NCBI GenBank assembly: GCA_963724885.1
Contig: CAVRWG010000002.1
Coordinates: forward strand, 114,150 to 178,149
DNA from: an uncultured Gemmatimonadaceae bacterium
Lineage (GTDB): Bacteria; Gemmatimonadota; Gemmatimonadetes; Gemmatimonadales; Gemmatimonadaceae
Reading direction: 5' to 3'
Length of the DNA: 64,000 bases
A program made the position numbers and the translations under genes. This document shows, piece after piece, positions 38,071 to 61,871 of the stretch. Under the pieces are notes generated by a model, which was given only the letters and a program-made list of their open reading frames with translations, had not been told where the DNA came from and ran no database searches. How positions within the stretch are numbered: the stretch's first letter is position 1; each line of letters opens with the position of its first letter.

Positions 38071-38331
38071 TTACTTCCAGCTTCCAGCCTCGCGCAGCTG
38101 CTCCACTGACTCCGGCTGGACGGAAATCATGTGGTCGCACCGCGGGCACACGTCCACCAGCACGTGAGGCACCACCAGGCGCGTGCGCGCCAGCTCCACC
38201 GATCTGCGCATGAGCTTCGCGCGGACTATGCTCTTGCAGCGCGGACAGGCGCTCGTGACGAACTCACCAGCTTCCGGACTTGCGATCATGGCCCTCTCCT
38301 TCGGGTAGAAGACGCCGACTCGCGTCATCAC
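38071..38331 (-). CDS. Small zinc-ribbon protein (two CPRC motifs), hypothetical
   Basis: ACPRCKSIV...VCPRCDHMISV across 86 aa. Confidence 0.4.
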   Translation of the reverse strand: MMTRVGVFYPKERAMIASPEAGEFVTSACPRCKSIVRAKLMRRSVELARTRLVVPHVLVDVCPRCDHMISVQPESVEQLREAGSWK

Positions 38332-38496
38332 GTCCCGACCTACGGCGCGGCGAACTTAAAGATTCAGCGAACCGTCGAAACACGCGGTTATGACGGTCCC
38401 CTCACCATTCGCGCGCGCGGCTCAGTCAGGGCGGAGCGACGGCACAAATCACGCACTGCGCACCCTGCGGCCCCCTTGGCCCACGGAGTGGCAGGA

Positions 38497-40428
38497 ATGA
38501 AATCGCAGCACGACACGCTGAGCCTGGATGCCCTCACCGAGCGCTACGAGGTCATGGGCGAGCTCGCCGGCAGGGACGACGCGCGGACATTCATCGGACG
38601 ACGCCGCGACGACGGCGTCGACGTGCTCATCGCGGTTTCGCGAACGCCCGAAGGCGACGAGGGCAACGCGCTCAGCCACGTGGCGTCGGACGCGCAGTTG
38701 CTGGCGGCACAACCCCATCCGAACGTCGTTCCCGTCCTCGATGGCCAATGGGTGGGAACGGATGCGTTCGCCGTCGTCAGCGAACGATCGGGCGCTCCAT
38801 CCGTGAAGGACATCCTGGCGCGTCGCGACGAGGAGTTCCCCTTTCCCCGCATCGCCGCGATTCTCCAATCAGTCAATCATGCGCTCGAGTGGGCTCGCGA
38901 GCGCAAGATCGTGCATCGCGGCGTCGCGCTGGACACGTTGTTCATCGAGCCCGGCAGCGACCACGTACGTGTGACGTTCGCCGTGCAGGCGCTGCCGCGC
39001 TCGGGCATGCCGGGCGCCGAGACCGACGCGCGAACGATCGCCGGCCTCGCGCGGGCGATGATGACGCGCAGCGCCGCCGATCCGGAGCGTGACAACCGTC
39101 CGCTGGTGGAGGTCCGTCCCGGGCTGCCCGCGGCGTTGATCGCGCAGACGGAGGCGCTGCTCGGGAAGTCACGCTCCGGCCAGGCACCGCCGGACGTGTC
39201 GGGATACATCGCCTCGCTCGCGATGGCCGACGCGCTCAAGTCGGGCGAGACCCACCTTGAGAAGACGCGCCACATCATCGAGGAGCAGCGGCGCCTGCAT
39301 CGCGAGCATCTGGAGAAGGAGCGGCGGCAGCACGACGAGCATCTGGCGGCCGAGCGGGCCGCGCATCAGGAGGAAGTCGCCGAACAGGCAAGGCGTTTCG
39401 AGAAGGAGCGCGACGACTTCGCGATCGCTCTCGGGAAGGAGCGCACGAGCCTCGAGCGGGAGCGCCAGAGCGTGGCGAAGGAACGCTCCGCGCACGCCCG
39501 CGACTGCGCGACGCTCAAGCGCGAGCGGGAAGCGCACGAGCGCGACGTGGCCGCGATGCGGGAGAAGCTGGAGTGGGAGAGCGCCGCGTTGAAGACGCAG
39601 GCCGAACGCTTTGCCGGAAAAGGCGAGCCGGAGACGGACCTGGTGCTGTCGGATCTGGATCGCGAGCTGGACCGGGAGCTGGACCGCGAGCTGGACCGGG
39701 AGCCGGACCGCGAGCCGGACCGCGAGCCGGACCGCGAGCCGGGCCGCGAACGGGACCGTCCACGCCGCGCCGCACCTGTCCCGACCCCAAGGCCCGTGTC
39801 GCCGGAACCGGTGTTGCTGAACCCGGCCGCGCCCACGTGGATGACATCGAAGCGCCCATCGTCGCGAAAGACAAAGACCGGCCCGTCGCTCTGGACGCGC
39901 GCGACCGCGCTCGTGCCGCGGTGGAAGCGGTCCTGGACGGTCCCGGCGGTCGCGGGCGGTGTGCTTCTGGTCGTGGCTGGAGCCGCGATCGGCCTCAGGC
40001 GCGAGGCAACCGTTGCAACGAAGCCGCCGGGCCGCGTCGTGGATTCGGTTGCCGGCGCCGTGCGGGTCGAGACGCTCCGGGTAGCCCCGCGGCCCGATAC
40101 GTCGGGTGTTGCGGGCGTGCCAACCGACCTCATGACCGGTGTTGCGGGCCGGGCCGACTCGGCGCCAACCAGCGAACCGTCCGACGCCCCCTCGTCCCAG
40201 CCGACCACGCCCACCGAGCAACCGGTCGACGTCGAACCGGCGCCACGGCGGGAGGAACGCGCCTACGATACGGCCGCCCAACGTCCTACGCGGGGATCCG
40301 GGAATACCATGTACATCCCGTCAGTGGGTGAAGTCCGCGTGGACAGCGTGCGGCGCGGCGGCGTCATGTACCGGCCCGGCGAGCCCGCTGGTGGCGACTC
40401 ACTGATCCCACGGATTCCACCGCGTTAA
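38497..40428 (+). CDS. Ser/Thr protein kinase-like (probably pseudokinase) membrane protein with ER/K-rich coiled coil, DREL/DREP tandem repeat and single TM
   Basis: The kinase-like N-domain (YEVMGELAGRDDARTFIG...KIVHRGVALDTLFI) has HRG in place of HRD. It is followed by a long charged helix, (DREL)3(DREP)4, the TM WTVPAVAGGVLLVVAGAAIGL, and a Pro/Ser/Thr-rich extracellular tail. Confidence 0.55.
   Translation: MKSQHDTLSLDALTERYEVMGELAGRDDARTFIGRRRDDGVDVLIAVSRTPEGDEGNALSHVASDAQLLAAQPHPNVVPVLDGQWVGTDAFAVVSERSGAPSVKDILARRDEEFPFPRIAAILQSVNHALEWARERKIVHRGVALDTLFIEPGSDHVRVTFAVQALPRSGMPGAETDARTIAGLARAMMTRSAADPERDNRPLVEVRPGLPAALIAQTEALLGKSRSGQAPPDVSGYIASLAMADALKSGETHLEKTRHIIEEQRRLHREHLEKERRQHDEHLAAERAAHQEEVAEQARRFEKERDDFAIALGKERTSLERERQSVAKERSAHARDCATLKREREAHERDVAAMREKLEWESAALKTQAERFAGKGEPETDLVLSDLDRELDRELDRELDREPDREPDREPDREPGRERDRPRRAAPVPTPRPVSPEPVLLNPAAPTWMTSKRPSSRKTKTGPSLWTRATALVPRWKRSWTVPAVAGGVLLVVAGAAIGLRREATVATKPPGRVVDSVAGAVRVETLRVAPRPDTSGVAGVPTDLMTGVAGRADSAPTSEPSDAPSSQPTTPTEQPVDVEPAPRREERAYDTAAQRPTRGSGNTMYIPSVGEVRVDSVRRGGVMYRPGEPAGGDSLIPRIPPR
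39658..39750 (+). repeat. Tandem 12-bp repeat (GACCG[CG]GAGC[TC]G) x about 8 within the coding sequence
   Basis: gatcgcgagctggaccgggagctggaccgcgagctggaccgggagccggaccgcgagccggaccgcgagccggaccgcgagccgggccgcgaa. Confidence 0.7.
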
Positions 40429-44886: not shown

Positions 44887-45092
44887 CCGAATGGCTCCAC
44901 GTCCGACGGGAATGGCTTCACAGTCCGAAGGGTTGATGCGGATTCAGGCCGATTCTGACCGATCACGCCGATAGAGAAGGACAAACGTGCCGGCCTTCAG
45001 CTCGCATGGGCTCCATCGGCGAGAATCGGCTCGATTCGGCGTCAATCCGCGTGGCCCTTCGGGCTGTGGGGCCTTTCGCTAACATTCAGAGC

Positions 45093-51876: not shown

Positions 51877-52627
51877 GTGCTCATCCTACGAAGCGCGCTA
51901 TTACTAGCGTTCCTTTCCTCGTCGGCGGCGGCCCAGATCTTCGGCTCCCGGCCCAACAAGGCGTCAGACCAGTGGATTCTCAACCTGTCCGCTCTGGCCG
52001 GCATCCCCGTCGGGGACTTCCGCAAGGACGAGAAGCTCGGCGGCGGGCTGGAAATCGCGGTCGGGTACCAGCCATTCCGACGCCAGCCGCTCGTCCTCCG
52101 CGGCAGCCTGGGCGGGCTGATGTATGAGCGGTACAACAACGACTACCATGGCGTCGAGGTGTGCGACTTCTTCGGCTTCAACTGCACGGAGGAGATCCTG
52201 TTCTACGACTCGCAGAATCACTACATGTCGTTTGTCCAGGCGGGACCGGAGATCATGGCGACCGACGGCACGTGGCGCCCGTACGCGTACGCCCTGACCG
52301 GCTTCACCTTCTTCAACAGCACGGTGGCGTTCGGTGATGCGCGGGTCGTCCTCGTCCAGTACCAGAAGTCTCTTTTCGTCGCGCAACTTCTCGACCAGCT
52401 ACGCTCTCGGGGTGCGCCGGGTGACCTCGAACTTCGGGCGCGAAGGGGGAGTGGACATTTCCGTCCGCTTCACGCGCAACGCCAAGGCGCGGTACCTCAC
52501 GGAAAAGGGCGTCTACCGCGACGACAACGGCAGCTACGCCATCTCGCCGCGCGCCGGTGCTGCCAACATGGTCTTCATCCAGATCGGCTTCACCGGCGGT
52601 CCATTCGTCAACTGGAACGAGCGCTAG
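51877..52627 (+). CDS. Outer-membrane beta-barrel-like protein; apparent frameshift near 52350 at a T-run
   Basis: A signal peptide and alternating-hydrophobic beta strands in frame 1 (51877..) continue in the frame of track ORF 52334..52627. The frame is lost around ctcttttcg. Confidence 0.35.
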
Positions 52628-52673
52628 TCGCCATGACCCGAGCGCTCTTCGTGATCCCGAGCGCTCGTCGCCG

Positions 52674-53966
52674 TCATCCCGAGCGCAGCGAGGGATCCGC
52701 CGTTGTGACGTACTTCCTGACCGCGGTCACGACCCGGTCCATCTCGTCCATCGTGTTGTAGAAGTGCGGCGATAGGCGCACGCCGGGACGCGCCGTTCCG
52801 CCGGACGCGGCGCAGGCGATCCGGTCCTTCTCGTACAGGGTGGCGGCGAGCTTCCGCGGGTCCAGCGCCCCGGGCTTGAAGACAATGATGGCCGCCGAAC
52901 GCGCGGCGTCCGGGTTCGTCCAGAGCGTCACTCCGTCGATGCGCTGGAGCTGCGTGGCGAGGTGCGTCGCCAGTTGCCGCGCGCGTTTCTCGATGGCCGC
53001 GCGGCCGATTTCGTCCTGGAGCTTCAGCGCCGCGCCCAGCGTGGCGAGCGCCGCCTCGTCGCGCTGGCCGAACGCTTCGTGCGTGCGGGAGATCCCGACC
53101 GCGCCGCCGTAGAGGCTCACGATGCTGGGCGCGATGCGGTCGTGCACTTCGCGGTCCACGTACAGGACGCCGATCTCCTTCGGAGCGCAGGGCCATTTGT
53201 GCGCCGAGCCAGAATAGAAGTGCGGCCGCATCTGGGTCAGGTTGACGTCGAGGACGCCGAACGATTGCGCGCCGTCCACCAGCGCGAACACGCCACGCTC
53301 GCGCGCCACGCGGCAGAGGTCCGCGACAGGCAGCATGTCGCCCATCGTGTTGGTGACGTGGGTGACCGCGAGCACGCGGGTTCTCGGCGTGATCGCTCGC
53401 GTGAATGCCTCGACGTAGGCGGCCGGCCCGGGATGCGGGTTCGTCACCGCGACCTCGACGACCGTGAACCCGAACCGCTTCGCCTTCTCGCGCCAGGCGT
53501 TCAGGTTGCTCGGGTGGTTGTCGGCGAAGATCACCACTTCGTCGCCCGGCGAGAGCTGGAGCCCGCTCGAGACGAGGTTGTTCGCCTCGCTGGTGTTGCG
53601 CGTGATGATGATCTCTTCCGGCGTGACCTGAAGTGCGCGGGCCACGAGGCGGCGGGCCTCCTCGCGTCCCTCGGTCAGCTTCGCCCGGCTCGCCGAAGAC
53701 GGGTTGCCGTCGAGGAAGCGCGTGTTGCGCTCCAGCGCCTCGATGACCGGGAGGGACGTGGGGCAGAGATTGGCCGCGTTCACGAACGCGAAGTCCGGCG
53801 GCATCAGGAACCGGGCGCGAACCTCCTTCCAGAACTTCTCGTCGGGCTCCGTGGGCGTCGGCGGCAGCGGCGTTCCGATGAGGCGCATCGGAAGGCCCGG
53901 CAGGAAAGCCGCCGAGCCGGTGAGCGCGAGAAGCCGGGTAAAGTCGCGTCGCGAAACAGCGGTCAT
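52674..53966 (-). CDS. Class V aminotransferase-fold PLP-dependent enzyme with Tat (twin-arginine) signal
   Basis: Internal start MTAVSRRDFTRLLALTGSAAFLPG (the RRDF Tat motif) and SGSAHKWPCAPKEIGVLYV (PLP-lysine region). Its start overlaps the stop of the TDO-like frame by ATGA. Confidence 0.6.
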   Translation of the reverse strand: MTAVSRRDFTRLLALTGSAAFLPGLPMRLIGTPLPPTPTEPDEKFWKEVRARFLMPPDFAFVNAANLCPTSLPVIEALERNTRFLDGNPSSASRAKLTEGREEARRLVARALQVTPEEIIITRNTSEANNLVSSGLQLSPGDEVVIFADNHPSNLNAWREKAKRFGFTVVEVAVTNPHPGPAAYVEAFTRAITPRTRVLAVTHVTNTMGDMLPVADLCRVARERGVFALVDGAQSFGVLDVNLTQMRPHFYSGSAHKWPCAPKEIGVLYVDREVHDRIAPSIVSLYGGAVGISRTHEAFGQRDEAALATLGAALKLQDEIGRAAIEKRARQLATHLATQLQRIDGVTLWTNPDAARSAAIIVFKPGALDPRKLAATLYEKDRIACAASGGTARPGVRLSPHFYNTMDEMDRVVTAVRKYVTTADPSLRSG

Positions 53967-58551: not shown

Positions 58552-58830
58552 GAACCGCCGGCGCTTCGCGCCGGATAGCTGCCGGCCCGTTTGCGGCCGG
58601 AGAACTGCCCCTGCGGGCCGGACGACTGCCGGCGCTTCGCGCCGGAGAACTGCACTTCGATTTACACGAGTGCGTGCCGGCGGAGCCGCGTGTCTCAGCA
58701 TGCCAACGCTGCGGTCGTCTGCGGCGATAGCCGCAGCGTTGTCCGCACCGAAGGCGCGGCAGTTGTCCGGCGTAGCCGGCGATTCCCGCCGCGAAGCGGC
58801 GGCCGTTGTCCGCGGCTACGCCGCGGCCGT
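58552..58830. repeat. Intergenic cluster of GC-rich palindromes/hairpins (REP-like)
   Basis: The palindrome gccggcgcttcgcgccgg occurs twice about 75 bp apart. There is an 11-bp perfect stem caacgctgcgg...ccgcagcgttg and a repeated gttgtccg motif. Confidence 0.5.
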
Positions 58831-60106
58831 TCACTCGTATCGCAGCGCCGCCACCGGATCCAGCCGCGCCGCACGCATCGCGGGCAGCAGTCCGAACAGA
58901 ATCCCCGTGAACGCCGACACGCCCAGCGCTGCGACGACCGAACCCACGGGCGTCGAAGCGGGAATCGCGGGCCACATCGTGCGCACGCCGACCGCCACCA
59001 GAATCCCCAGAATCAGCCCCACCGACGCACCGATGCCGGTGAGCGTCACCGCCTCGACCAGGAACTGCCACAGGATCGTTCCCCTCGTCGCGCCCAGCGC
59101 CTTGCGTACGCCGATCTCGCGCGTGCGCTCGGTGACCGAGATCATCATGATCGCGATCACGCCCACGCCGCCCACCAGCAAGCCCACCGACGACAGCGCC
59201 AGCCCGACCACGAAGAAGGTGCCGAAGAGCTGGTTGTAGATGCCCATCAACCGGTCCTGCGTGATGATGGCGAAGTTGTCGGGCTGTGACGGACGCAGCC
59301 CGCGCATCGCGCGCAGCAGCGCGGTCACCTCGTCCGTGGCCTGCTCGACCGACACGCCCTTACGCGGCTTCACGATCAGGTTGTTGCCGCGCATCCAGAA
59401 GTCCAGATGCCGGCGAGCGGTTTCCCAGGGCACGATGGCCTTGGGCGAGTCGCCGCCGCCCGCGGACGTCGGCGTGCCCATCGGGCTCGCCGTGTAGTGA
59501 TAGATGCCGATCACCCGAAGCCGCACGCCGCTGCTGACCTCGACTTCCTTGTCGATCGGGTCCGAGTCGCCGAACAGCTTCTCCGCCAGCTTTTCGTTCA
59601 GGATCACGACGCGCGCGGCATTCTCGTTCTCGGCGTCGGTGAAGCTGCGTCCGGGATAGATGTCGCCACCGTCCACCGCAGTCCAGTTGGCCGTGTAGCC
59701 TTCGACGCCGGCGCCGAGCTCGCGGTCCTTGTAGCGGAACCGCAAGCCGTTGGCCACATGCGATGTGACCGCGAGGATGCTGGGCAGGCGCTGGATCGCG
59801 TCCGCTTCGCTCATGCGGATCATCGGGTTGCGGCGCTCGGGACAGGTTTCGTCGGTGCCGTCGCACACCTGGAAGCCGCCGATGTTGCGGCGGTAGATGA
59901 AGAACGACGTCGGCCCGGCGGCCTCCACGTCGCGAGCGAAGCTCTCGTTGATGCCGCGCACCACCGACGACAGCGCGACGACGACGAAGACGCCGACGGC
60001 GACGCCCATGATCGTGAGACCCGCGCGCACCTTGTTGGCGCGCATCGCGTCCAGCGCGATGCCGACGCCTTCGAGCGCGTGCGAAGACCTTCGTGCCGAT
60101 GCTCAT
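58831..60106 (-). CDS. ABC-transporter permease, FtsX/MacB-like family, paralog 3 (essentially intact; possible frameshift near 60080 at the extreme N-terminus)
   Basis: The 404-aa track ORF carries the N-terminal TM ([22 protein letters not shown]), a periplasmic MacB-like domain and the FtsX domain ending [12 protein letters not shown] conserved ...[11 protein letters not shown]... leader appears only after a frame change upstream of 60045. Confidence 0.75.
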
Positions 60107-61354: not shown

Positions 61355-61396
61355 GAGAGGGAGGAGGGAGGAGGGAGGAGGAGGAGGGAGGAGGGG
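61350..61396. repeat. Left inverted repeat flanking four-helix-bundle cassette 2 ((GGGAGGA)n purine tract)
   Basis: gggcaagagagggaggagggaggagggaggaggaggagggaggagggg is the reverse complement of the (CCCTCCT)n tract at 61829-61871. Confidence 0.6.
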
Positions 61397-61468
61397 TTAG
61401 GGGCGCGATCGTTTGATGACGGTTTTAGGGGATTCTCGGCGATTGTTGGGCAACTTTACCAACGCCGC

Positions 61469-61828
61469 GTGACACACAACGGATATCGCGAGCTAAAAGT
61501 TTGGCACAAGGCAGTCCGACTTGTGGTCAATGTCTATCAGGCGACCCGGAGGTTTCCGCCGGACGAGCGCTACGGATTAACGACCCAGATTCGACGTGCA
61601 GCGGTATCGATCGTGGCAAACATCGCTGAGGGTCATGGCCGAACGACGAGAGGCGAATACCGTCAGCACTTGTCATTCGCCCGCGGTTCGCTGAAGGAAG
61701 TAGAAGCCCTCTGCGAGGTCTCGCGCGAGCTGTCCATCATGGATCACTCGACCTACGATTCCCTCCAGGAGCCCTGCGTGGAAATCAGCAAAATGCTCAC
61801 GGCTCTGAAGCGCTCCCTGGCACCCTAG
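61469..61828 (+). CDS. Four-helix-bundle protein (TIGR02436 / 23S rRNA IVS protein family), second copy
   Basis: YRELKVWHKAVRLVVNVYQATRRFPPDERYGLTTQIRRAAVSIVANIAEG, collinear with the copy at 55568 and with about 45% identity by eye. GTG start assumed. Confidence 0.7.
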   Translation: MTHNGYRELKVWHKAVRLVVNVYQATRRFPPDERYGLTTQIRRAAVSIVANIAEGHGRTTRGEYRQHLSFARGSLKEVEALCEVSRELSIMDHSTYDSLQEPCVEISKMLTALKRSLAP

Positions 61829-61871
61829 GTCCCTCCTCCCTCCTCCCTCCTCCCTCCTCCCTCCTCCCTCC
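61829..61871. repeat. Right inverted repeat flanking four-helix-bundle cassette 2 ((CCCTCCT)n)
   Basis: ccctcctccctcctccctcctccctcctccctcctccctccc abuts the stop codon (cta at 61872-61874) of permease paralog 5. Confidence 0.6.

Follow-up and report, generated by a model that had tools for sequence, protein, structure and literature searches.

The stretch of DNA analysed here, 64,000 nucleotides of contig CAVRWG010000002.1 from an uncultured Gemmatimonadaceae bacterium (hereafter the window), carries at 38497-40428 on the plus strand an intact open reading frame (ORF) of 643 codons, according to the ORF listing and its translation. The N-terminal domain of the 643-residue product is a pseudokinase. 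It is followed by a long helical stalk, a linker of low predicted order that holds a 12-bp tandem repeat, a single transmembrane (TM) helix, and a tail that is predicted to be disordered. Taking these parts together, we consider the protein to be probably a receptor-like, single-pass membrane pseudokinase scaffold, in which the stalk would pair with another helix, the linker would be flexible, and the recent expansion of the repeat would be nearly neutral. From sequence comparison, the gene appears to be a member of an uncharacterised pseudokinase family that is restricted to Gemmatimonadota.

The kinase-like domain and its missing catalytic residues

The first 243 residues give a confident Hanks-type kinase fold with PknB and Stk1 as the nearest structures. 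Both lobes are present, a five-stranded N-lobe with αC and a helical C-lobe with αE and αF. The Pfam model PF07714 passes its cut-off narrowly (25.7 bits against 23.1) and spans residues 39-152 only, and PF00069 stays below its threshold (14.9 bits against 31.7). Matches to the NCBIfam MADS6 kinase and PASTA kinase models lie far under the cut-offs and were set aside as generic kinase similarity. Used as a single query against the sequences of the PDB, the protein retrieves the kinases ZAP-70, MST and PAK. A profile of 19 family members retrieves Stk1/PknB from Staphylococcus aureus (4eqm, E=9.5e-9) and PknB from Mycobacterium tuberculosis. In both searches, the HRG of the window protein aligns with the HRD motif.

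Correspondences with individual PknB residues (Table 1) were drawn with hhalign from the family profile and a PknB sequence whose numbering is consistent with K40, E59, D138 and D156. The β3 Lys, the HRD Asp, the catalytic-loop Asn and the DFG Asp are replaced by Ala, Gly, Thr and Thr, respectively, and the Gly-rich loop is degenerate and acidic. In addition, DSSP assignment of the AlphaFold2 model leaves only ~12 residues between Phe161 and the start of αF, so the activation segment is shortened and a full segment ending in APE is absent. Since the stretch from DFG to αF is about three times longer in PknB, the activation and P+1 segment is largely gone. At the sequence level, a pseudokinase is defined by the absence of at least one of the VAIK Lys, the HRD Asp and the DFG Asp (PMC12599244; bioRxiv 10.1101/2025.01.12.632604), and all three are absent here. 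An earlier reading of the window, made from its letters without database searches (the sequence-only reading), had proposed a pseudokinase from the HRG triplet. The present analysis makes the case stronger, as the losses extend to the β3 Lys, the catalytic Asn and the DFG Asp, and alignment to Hanks-type kinases through sequence profiles and the structure model offers no alternative register that restores the catalytic residues.

The same positions were followed across 231 family members, with statistics that cover the commonest residues listed for each column. The β3 column holds T, S, A or V with minor E, R, M and L, and Lys is not among the residues listed. The DFG-Asp column holds S, A, T or M, and the HRD-Asp column (142) holds G, A, H, S, T, N, R or V; Asp is not among the residues listed for either. 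The catalytic-loop Asn column is mostly T or S, with Asn in only 17 members. Column 142 is unconserved, and such free variation is as expected for a site without a role. In the same members His140, Arg141, Asp65 and Asp177 of αF are nearly invariant, and so are Gly56, Trp85, Arg97, Glu112, Arg118, Trp132, Arg134, Asp155, Phe161 and Met188. The beginning of αC and the loop before it form a near-invariant signature of the family. It follows from this pattern of conservation that the kinase skeleton is selected, that the active site is not, and that a new conserved surface has arisen between β3 and αC.

A further nearly invariant residue, Asp39, sits at the equivalent of PknB Leu33 in the hhalign alignment. 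Leu33 is a core residue of the dimer that PknB forms back to back through its N-lobes, and it is the residue that is changed to Asp in the listed L33D crystal forms. The Asp at this position suggests that the family of the window protein does not use the canonical back-to-back dimer.

Stalk, membrane anchor and repeat-bearing linker

In the AlphaFold2 monomer model, residues 244-365 form one uninterrupted helix, which would be ~18 nm long if straight. Its 122 residues include 24 Glu, 19 Ala, 19 Arg, 10 Leu and 8 Lys. A conserved hydrophobic seam runs along the helix and slightly beyond it, at positions 247, 254, 261, 272, 283, 294, 301, 308, 312, 319, 326, 340, 354, 358, 365 and 372; at most of these ~16 positions, 75-100% of the members are hydrophobic. 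Conserved His residues at 279, 290, 333 and 347 (55-79%) alternate with Leu along the seam, and the hydrophobic and His positions together have a spacing of 7 or 11 residues. Hydrophobicity in the stalk has its periodicity peak at 3.6 residues (p=0.0005 against shuffles), and identity to the orthologue P0001 is 69%, equal to that of the kinase-like domain (69%). The seam, the periodicity and the conservation of the stalk suggest helix-helix packing. The stalk as a whole is His-rich (9 of the 122 residues), and the His-Leu seam could form an interface that responds to pH or metal. A tandem duplication of 33 bp lies inside the stalk, so this part of the protein grew by duplication too; the stalks of other members hold 14-residue ALAKERAAHxxDxx repeats.

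The single TM helix (VPAVAGGVLLVVAGAAIGL) is preceded by the conserved motif WxRxWxVPA. There is no signal peptide, and Arg and Lys are richer on the N-terminal flank of the TM helix. The expected topology is N-in, C-out. In a sister subfamily (within P0202-P0230, at least 14 clusters), the dead kinase head, the stalk and the TM helix are shared and are followed by a C-terminal LprI/DUF1311 domain, which is lysozyme-inhibitor-like (Pfam matches of E=1.8e-13 to 3e-7). The position of this domain after the TM helix lends support to a C-out topology and hints that the role may be related to the envelope. In the window protein, the corresponding part is a tail for which disorder is predicted. Several homologues (P0009, P0012, P0110 and P0148) end in tandem (I/V)RRD(S/T) pentapeptides, of which VDSVRRGGV is the only copy retained in the window protein.

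Between stalk and TM helix, Tandem Repeats Finder (TRF) detects an array of 12-bp units at 39657-39758; with 8.5 copies and 88% matches, it has a score of 141, the top tandem-repeat score of the whole window. The seven near-identical in-frame units encoding (DREL)3(DREP)4, which the sequence-only reading had pointed out, are confirmed by TRF and by our unit table. The DREL units are, in order, GATCGCGAGCTG, GACCGGGAGCTG and GACCGCGAGCTG; the DREP units are GACCGGGAGCCG and then three times GACCGCGAGCCG; and two decayed units, GGCCGCGAACGG (GRER) and GACCGTCCACGC (DRPR), follow. The three identical final DREP units make up a perfect repeat of 36 bp within 84 bp of near-perfect repeat, and the remaining four of the seven differ by 1-2 nt. 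The switch from Leu to Pro is a single CTG to CCG change. Because the last three units are identical and the first ones have diverged at wobble positions, expansion of the array appears to have been stepwise and recent. In-frame variable-number tandem repeats (VNTRs) with units of 9-20 bp vary among bacterial strains, and slippage of the array is plausible. It has the tandem identical units of a slipped-strand locus and lacks the capacity to shift the frame: since the unit of 12 bp is a multiple of three, only the length of the protein would change and on/off switching would not occur. A metagenome search with a DNA pattern for (DRE[LP])4 returned 44 loci (L033-L076), none of which is homologous to the window gene. 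In these 44 unrelated contigs the DREP/DREL microsatellite reaches ~12 or more units (e.g. L043 and L044), and many copies are not in an open frame, often stand beside stop codons and are probably non-coding.

The repeat was described earlier as following the helix. It does so, but not directly, because residues 366-387 (KTQAERFAGKGEPETDLVLSDL), 22 residues with Gly and Pro, separate the two. From the array (388-423) up to the TM helix, the predicted local distance difference test score (pLDDT), averaged in blocks of 10 residues, is about 44-58 and no secondary structure is assigned; over the repeat itself the block means are about 47-58. The segments listed with pLDDT below 50 are 372-387, 403-427, 429-431, 440-442 and 448-459, and Pro makes up 17% of the region 385-470. 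The two closest orthologues, P0001 and P0002, lie at the same syntenic locus and contain both anchors of the linker, ETDLVL and GPS(V/L)W; the repeat is absent from them. The stretch from ETDLVL to GPSxW is 77 residues long in the window protein, 47 in P0002 and 31 in P0001. Therefore, the array of ~36 residues accounts for most of the excess linker length. Identity to these two orthologues is ~50% in the linker, with 33-46 gapped positions, versus ~69% in the domain and stalk. Among 192 full-length members, the linker measures 1-213 residues (median 59), and a few members have other short repeats at the same site (PPKPPKPPKP and PAVPAVPAV). Judged by these comparisons, the repeat is a lineage-specific in-frame expansion in the least constrained segment of the protein, and the variability of the linker across the family suggests that the length of the repeat is probably near-neutral. 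As a speculation, the Ser/Thr-rich linker (TSKRPSSRKTKT) could be a phospho-acceptor for active kinases, by analogy with MviN.

A proposed non-catalytic scaffold and the alternatives to it

With its altered active site, the window protein should be unable to phosphorylate and would most likely not bind ATP. Its head would then act non-catalytically, as a docking or allosteric module. The stalk of ~120 residues would pair with another helix through the Leu/His seam, in the simplest form as a homodimeric coiled coil. A flexible and fast-evolving linker of ~115 residues would tether the pseudokinase head to the membrane, and the (DREL)3(DREP)4 array would lengthen this tether by ~30 zwitterionic residues. 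The TM helix would join the cytoplasmic part to the disordered tail outside the cytoplasmic membrane, and in this way an envelope-facing tail would be connected to cytoplasmic partners. Precedents are EssB/YukC and MviN, bacterial membrane pseudokinases that act as non-catalytic scaffolds (PMC12599244). Several points weigh against such a scaffold. The stalk has one strongly hydrophobic core position per heptad and the other is mostly Arg, a weak pattern for a classical coiled coil. There are pseudokinases that bind nucleotide despite lacking the VAIK Lys (bioRxiv 10.1101/2025.01.12.632604). The role of the head as a scaffold is argued by analogy, with no shared neighbour to suggest a partner: all-against-all clustering of the ORFs at 33 loci gave no neighbour common to the family.

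The sequence-only reading had taken the stalk for an ER/K-rich single alpha-helix (SAH). If so, the stalk would be a genuine monomeric SAH, a stiff ruler of ~18 nm that holds the pseudokinase head off the membrane. Like the ER/K SAHs of myosin VI, myosin X and caldesmon, the stalk is long, free of Pro, highly charged (47% of residues) and predicted as a single continuous helix, and its one strongly hydrophobic position per heptad, next to a core position that is mostly Arg, would suit a monomer as well. However, an ER/K SAH is recognised by dominant Glu, Arg and Lys, dense opposite-charge pairs at i,i+4 and the lack of a seam. In the stalk, these three residues amount to 42% (at most 54% in any 28-residue window), which is lower than in the characterised ER/K SAHs, the salt-bridge pairs are sparse (density 0.14), and the hydrophobic/His seam is kept in more than 75% of members at ~16 positions. 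Moreover, SAHs mainly conserve composition, whereas the stalk is conserved in its sequence to the same degree as the globular domain. A monomer prediction, for its part, cannot tell an SAH from a coiled coil. The long continuous helix thus stands, its ER/K character does not, and a monomeric SAH is in our view unlikely. The same reading had combined the SAH with a repeat that serves as a rigid spacer. Here the array would be a slippage-prone contingency element with a copy number that differs among cells or strains, and in this way it would tune how long a spacer links the cytoplasmic domain to the membrane. The perfect and near-perfect repeat with its top TRF score, the identical units beside wobble-diverged ones, and the general variability of in-frame VNTRs all agree with an element of this kind. 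The array also resembles the in-frame VNTRs known from linker and surface proteins of bacteria, as well as the (Glu-Pro)n(Lys-Pro)n segment of TonB, in that it is a charged, Pro-containing, low-complexity spacer near a membrane anchor. But the TonB spacer is periplasmic and the window array is expected to be cytoplasmic, its segment is predicted to be disordered, and Pro occurs at every fourth residue in four units only, where TonB has runs of X-Pro dipeptides. The span of linker lengths in the family, its large gaps and the closest orthologues without the repeat also speak against a tuned length, and a unit that is a multiple of three makes on/off switching impossible. A rigid spacer is not borne out, and we regard the contingency element as distinctly unlikely.

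For the head, the alternative is an atypical kinase that is active, or a switch that depends on nucleotide, in either case by means of non-canonical residues such as Arg30, Arg36 or Arg37 together with Asp65, Asp155 or Glu151. WNK kinases, which use a Lys in β2, would be the model. His140 and Arg141 are kept, the charged residues Arg36, Asp65, Glu112, Arg118, Arg134, Glu151, Asp155 and Asp177 are near-invariant, basic residues cluster near the β2-β3 turn, and the pseudokinases that bind nucleotide without the VAIK Lys provide a further argument. Nevertheless, neither the catalytic-base position nor the metal-binding position has a conserved acidic residue, and the column of the catalytic base is freely variable. 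Asp27 and Asp28 in the Gly-rich loop would repel phosphates, and the short activation and substrate-binding segment and the low PF00069 score point the same way. Accordingly weighed, an active or nucleotide-switched head seems very improbable. Returning to the non-catalytic scaffold, an elaboration of it to which we give little chance is that the Leu/His seam might be a pH- or metal-sensitive dimerisation switch, which would couple the envelope tail, with an LprI domain in the sister subfamily and R-D-S/T repeats in the window protein, to a dead head that recruits cytoplasmic partners; linker expansions such as (DREL/DREP)n would let lineages retune its reach.

Table 1. Features of the pseudokinase gene and its divergent neighbour, in window coordinates
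Feature	Residues	Coordinates	Strand	Evidence
Whole gene, single-pass membrane pseudokinase, 643 aa		38497..40428 (stop codon included)	+	ORF/translation, 103 full-length homologues, upstream GGAG
Kinase-like (pseudokinase) domain	10-243	38524..39225	+	
Degenerate acidic Gly-rich loop, GELAGRDDAR	21-30	38557..38586	+	Aligns to PknB GEILGFGGMS and Stk1 LGGGGMS
Ala46, at PknB K40 (ATP-anchoring β3 Lys)	46	38632..38634	+	hhalign
Near-invariant signature PxGDEGNALSH(L/V)AxD; β3-αC loop and N-terminal αC, Asp65 at αC-Glu position	51-65	38647..38691	+	Column statistics
Asp65, at PknB E59 (αC Glu)	65			hhalign
His140-Arg141-Gly142 (HRG), at PknB H136-R137-D138 (HRD motif)	140-142	38914..38922	+	hhalign, PDB sequence matches
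Thr147, at PknB N143 (catalytic-loop Asn)	147	38935-38937	+	hhalign
Thr160-Phe161-Ala162 (TFA), at PknB D156-F157-G158 (DFG)	160-162	38974..38982	+	hhalign, DSSP of model, family column
Long charged helical stalk; Leu/His seam reaching residue 372	244-365	39226..39591	+	AlphaFold2 helix, family columns
33-bp tandem duplication in stalk, 11-aa units QRRLHREHLEK and ERRQHDEHLAA		39280..39357	+	TRF: period 33, 2.0-2.2 copies, 79-82% match
Seven in-frame 12-bp units, (DREL)3(DREP)4	388-415	39658..39741	+	TRF, unit table
Two decayed units, GRER and DRPR	416-423	39742..39765	+	Unit table
Rest of predicted disordered linker, Pro/Arg/Ser/Thr-rich, ending in conserved juxtamembrane GPSLW...RWKRSW		39766..39936	+	pLDDT, family consensus
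Single TM helix	482-500	39940..39996	+	Kyte-Doolittle mean 2.25 over 19 residues; AlphaFold2 helix 484-498; family-conserved
Predicted extracytoplasmic disordered tail	501-643	39997..40425	+	Block-mean pLDDT about 36-58, mostly <50
Tail motif VVDSVAGAV		40036-40062	+	Family consensus (V/I)xDSxAGxV just past TM helix
Tail motif VDSVRRGGV	615-623	40339-40365	+	Family R-D-S/T motifs
Divergent neighbour, 72-aa CxxC...CxxC zinc-ribbon ORF (context only)		38071..38289	-	Syntenic in closer relatives only

Family, genomic neighbourhood and place among bacterial pseudokinases

The start of the gene is supported by its homologues. They begin at an equivalent MK(S/T)Q, and ATG 38497 is therefore the true start rather than GTG 38131. 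A GGAG at 38485-38488 lies 8 nt 5' of this ATG. The longer GTG ORF from 38131 was rejected for the homologue starts and the GGAG, and also for its overlap with the divergent 72-aa gene. Two ORFs on the opposite strand, 39169-40281 and 39366-40214, were rejected as shadow ORFs of high-GC DNA, since the homology and fold evidence is all in the plus frame. A scan for promoters and terminators gave nothing above background.

A word-indexed protein search returned 103 homologues (E ~5e-46 or better, 31-63% identity), whose named sources are all metagenome-assembled genomes of Gemmatimonadaceae, Gemmatimonadetes or unclassified bacteria. The exact window protein gave no record on protein look-up. 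When 1.84 billion cluster representatives were searched exhaustively with a hidden Markov model of the N-terminal domain, 196 clusters (50% identity) had E<1e-30; a limit of E<1e-10 gave 623, and weaker matches blend into ordinary kinases. Scanning GTDB species genomes with motifs derived from the alignment gave 24 loci, all below about 57% identity; those with a taxon label are all Gemmatimonadota, and a few are labelled only 'bacterium'. Scans of GTDB genomes and JGI metagenomes with the single protein found no relatives. Over 5.8 billion proteins, the GTDB genomes and the JGI metagenomes, the nearest relatives that turned up do not exceed about 60% identity.

In the window and in closer relatives, the gene order is an M3 peptidase, the divergent 72-aa zinc-ribbon ORF, the pseudokinase, a dCache-HAMP-GGDEF protein and an SH3b protein. 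At one such locus (L003), identities are 80% for the M3 peptidase, 77% for the SH3 protein, 75% for the zinc-ribbon ORF, 69% for the GGDEF protein and 56% for the pseudokinase, which is thus far less conserved than the genes around it. The zinc-ribbon ORF is found with 62-75% identity at 10 related Gemmatimonadaceae loci, adjacent or ~3 kb off, and its Pfam matches are sub-threshold zinc-ribbon models only. Another clade has an amidohydrolase/esterase upstream and, downstream, an ORF of 89-92 aa that overlaps the stop codon and has no equivalent in the window; in a third clade, the neighbours are of the sortilin/BNR and cyclophilin kinds. As the neighbours are clade-specific, no partner can be inferred from synteny.

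Elsewhere in the window, a 122-aa ORF at about 61460-61828 (plus strand) has a Pfam match (E=2e-36) to 23S_rRNA_IVP, the family of the '23S rRNA intervening sequence protein', a four-helix bundle. The ORF lies in an island (61357-61871) with a GC content of 0.575 compared to 0.683 for the window, flanked by inverted heptamer arrays, (GAGGGAG)x5.7 at 61357-61395 and (TCCCTCC)x6 at 61830-61871. With a MacB/FtsX-type permease gene on either side, the island resembles an inserted cassette. Where two adjacent minus-strand MacB/FtsX-like permease paralogues meet, 24-bp tandem arrays occur in or close to the junction (58552-58831); there are two, both imperfect, with 4.3 and 4.7 copies and a match of 64-68%. 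Further short tandem repeats occur at 52618-52686 and 44889-44932 (22 bp x3.3 and 21 bp x2.0).

The closest active relatives are PknB and Stk1 (PrkC), Hanks-type receptor serine/threonine kinases of M. tuberculosis and S. aureus. Compared with them, the window family lacks the catalytic residues, has a shortened activation segment and has a conserved helical stalk of ~120 residues inserted ahead of the linker. The window protein also has no PASTA domains, and its outside part is a tail rich in Arg, Asp, Ser, Thr and Pro and predicted to be disordered. Two recent surveys list seven families of bacterial pseudokinases, ActPs1-3, GLW, CP1, DYD and DLHK, in addition to EssB/YukC; the seven come from Actinobacteria, Proteobacteria and Cyanobacteria, and none of the listed families is from Gemmatimonadota (PMC12599244; bioRxiv 10.1101/2025.01.12.632604). 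GLW replaces HRD, ActPs3 has VALT and LSIDHPSR motifs with a MurJ fusion, CP1 occurs with COG3899, and DLHK with helicase domains. As compared by published descriptions, none of the seven matches the window family, which keeps the His-Arg of HRD and is without their fused domains. The pseudokinase domain of MviN/MurJ Rv3910 (ActPs3) is actinobacterial, fused to a polytopic flippase and carries VALT / LSIDHPSR / Y-- motifs. In contrast, the window family retains the HRD His-Arg, with V-L-I-(T/S/A/V) and (S/A/T)-F-(A/V) at the other two motifs, and has a single TM helix.

The likeness to EssB/YukC of the type VIIb secretion system in Firmicutes is one of architecture, as both are bitopic membrane proteins with an N-terminal cytoplasmic pseudokinase. 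EssB/YukC is degraded in the three catalytic motifs, the Gly-rich loop and the activation loop, and is a non-catalytic structural or regulatory component (PMC12599244). However, it comes from a different phylum, is without a long stalk, and its extracellular domain is folded. None of the type VIIb genes EssA, EssC, EsaA and WXG100 that mark the EssB/YukC cluster is found near the window pseudokinase, and EssB/YukC is absent from the top sequence and fold matches of the window protein, with which no direct comparison was made.

In this study, the repeat that first drew attention is of lesser weight. It illustrates how a disordered juxtamembrane linker can grow by microsatellite-like expansion, and, were the organism ever sampled repeatedly, it could be of use as a marker for typing strains. 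Of greater importance is the protein that carries it. Bacterial pseudokinases are barely explored, and none of the catalogued families comes from Gemmatimonadota. With the loss of catalytic residues, a new β3-αC motif, a stalk with a Leu/His seam and a modular outside part as its hallmarks, the family is a clean candidate case for asking how a receptor kinase of the PknB type may turn into a signalling or scaffolding device without catalysis, and this in a soil phylum that has received little study.

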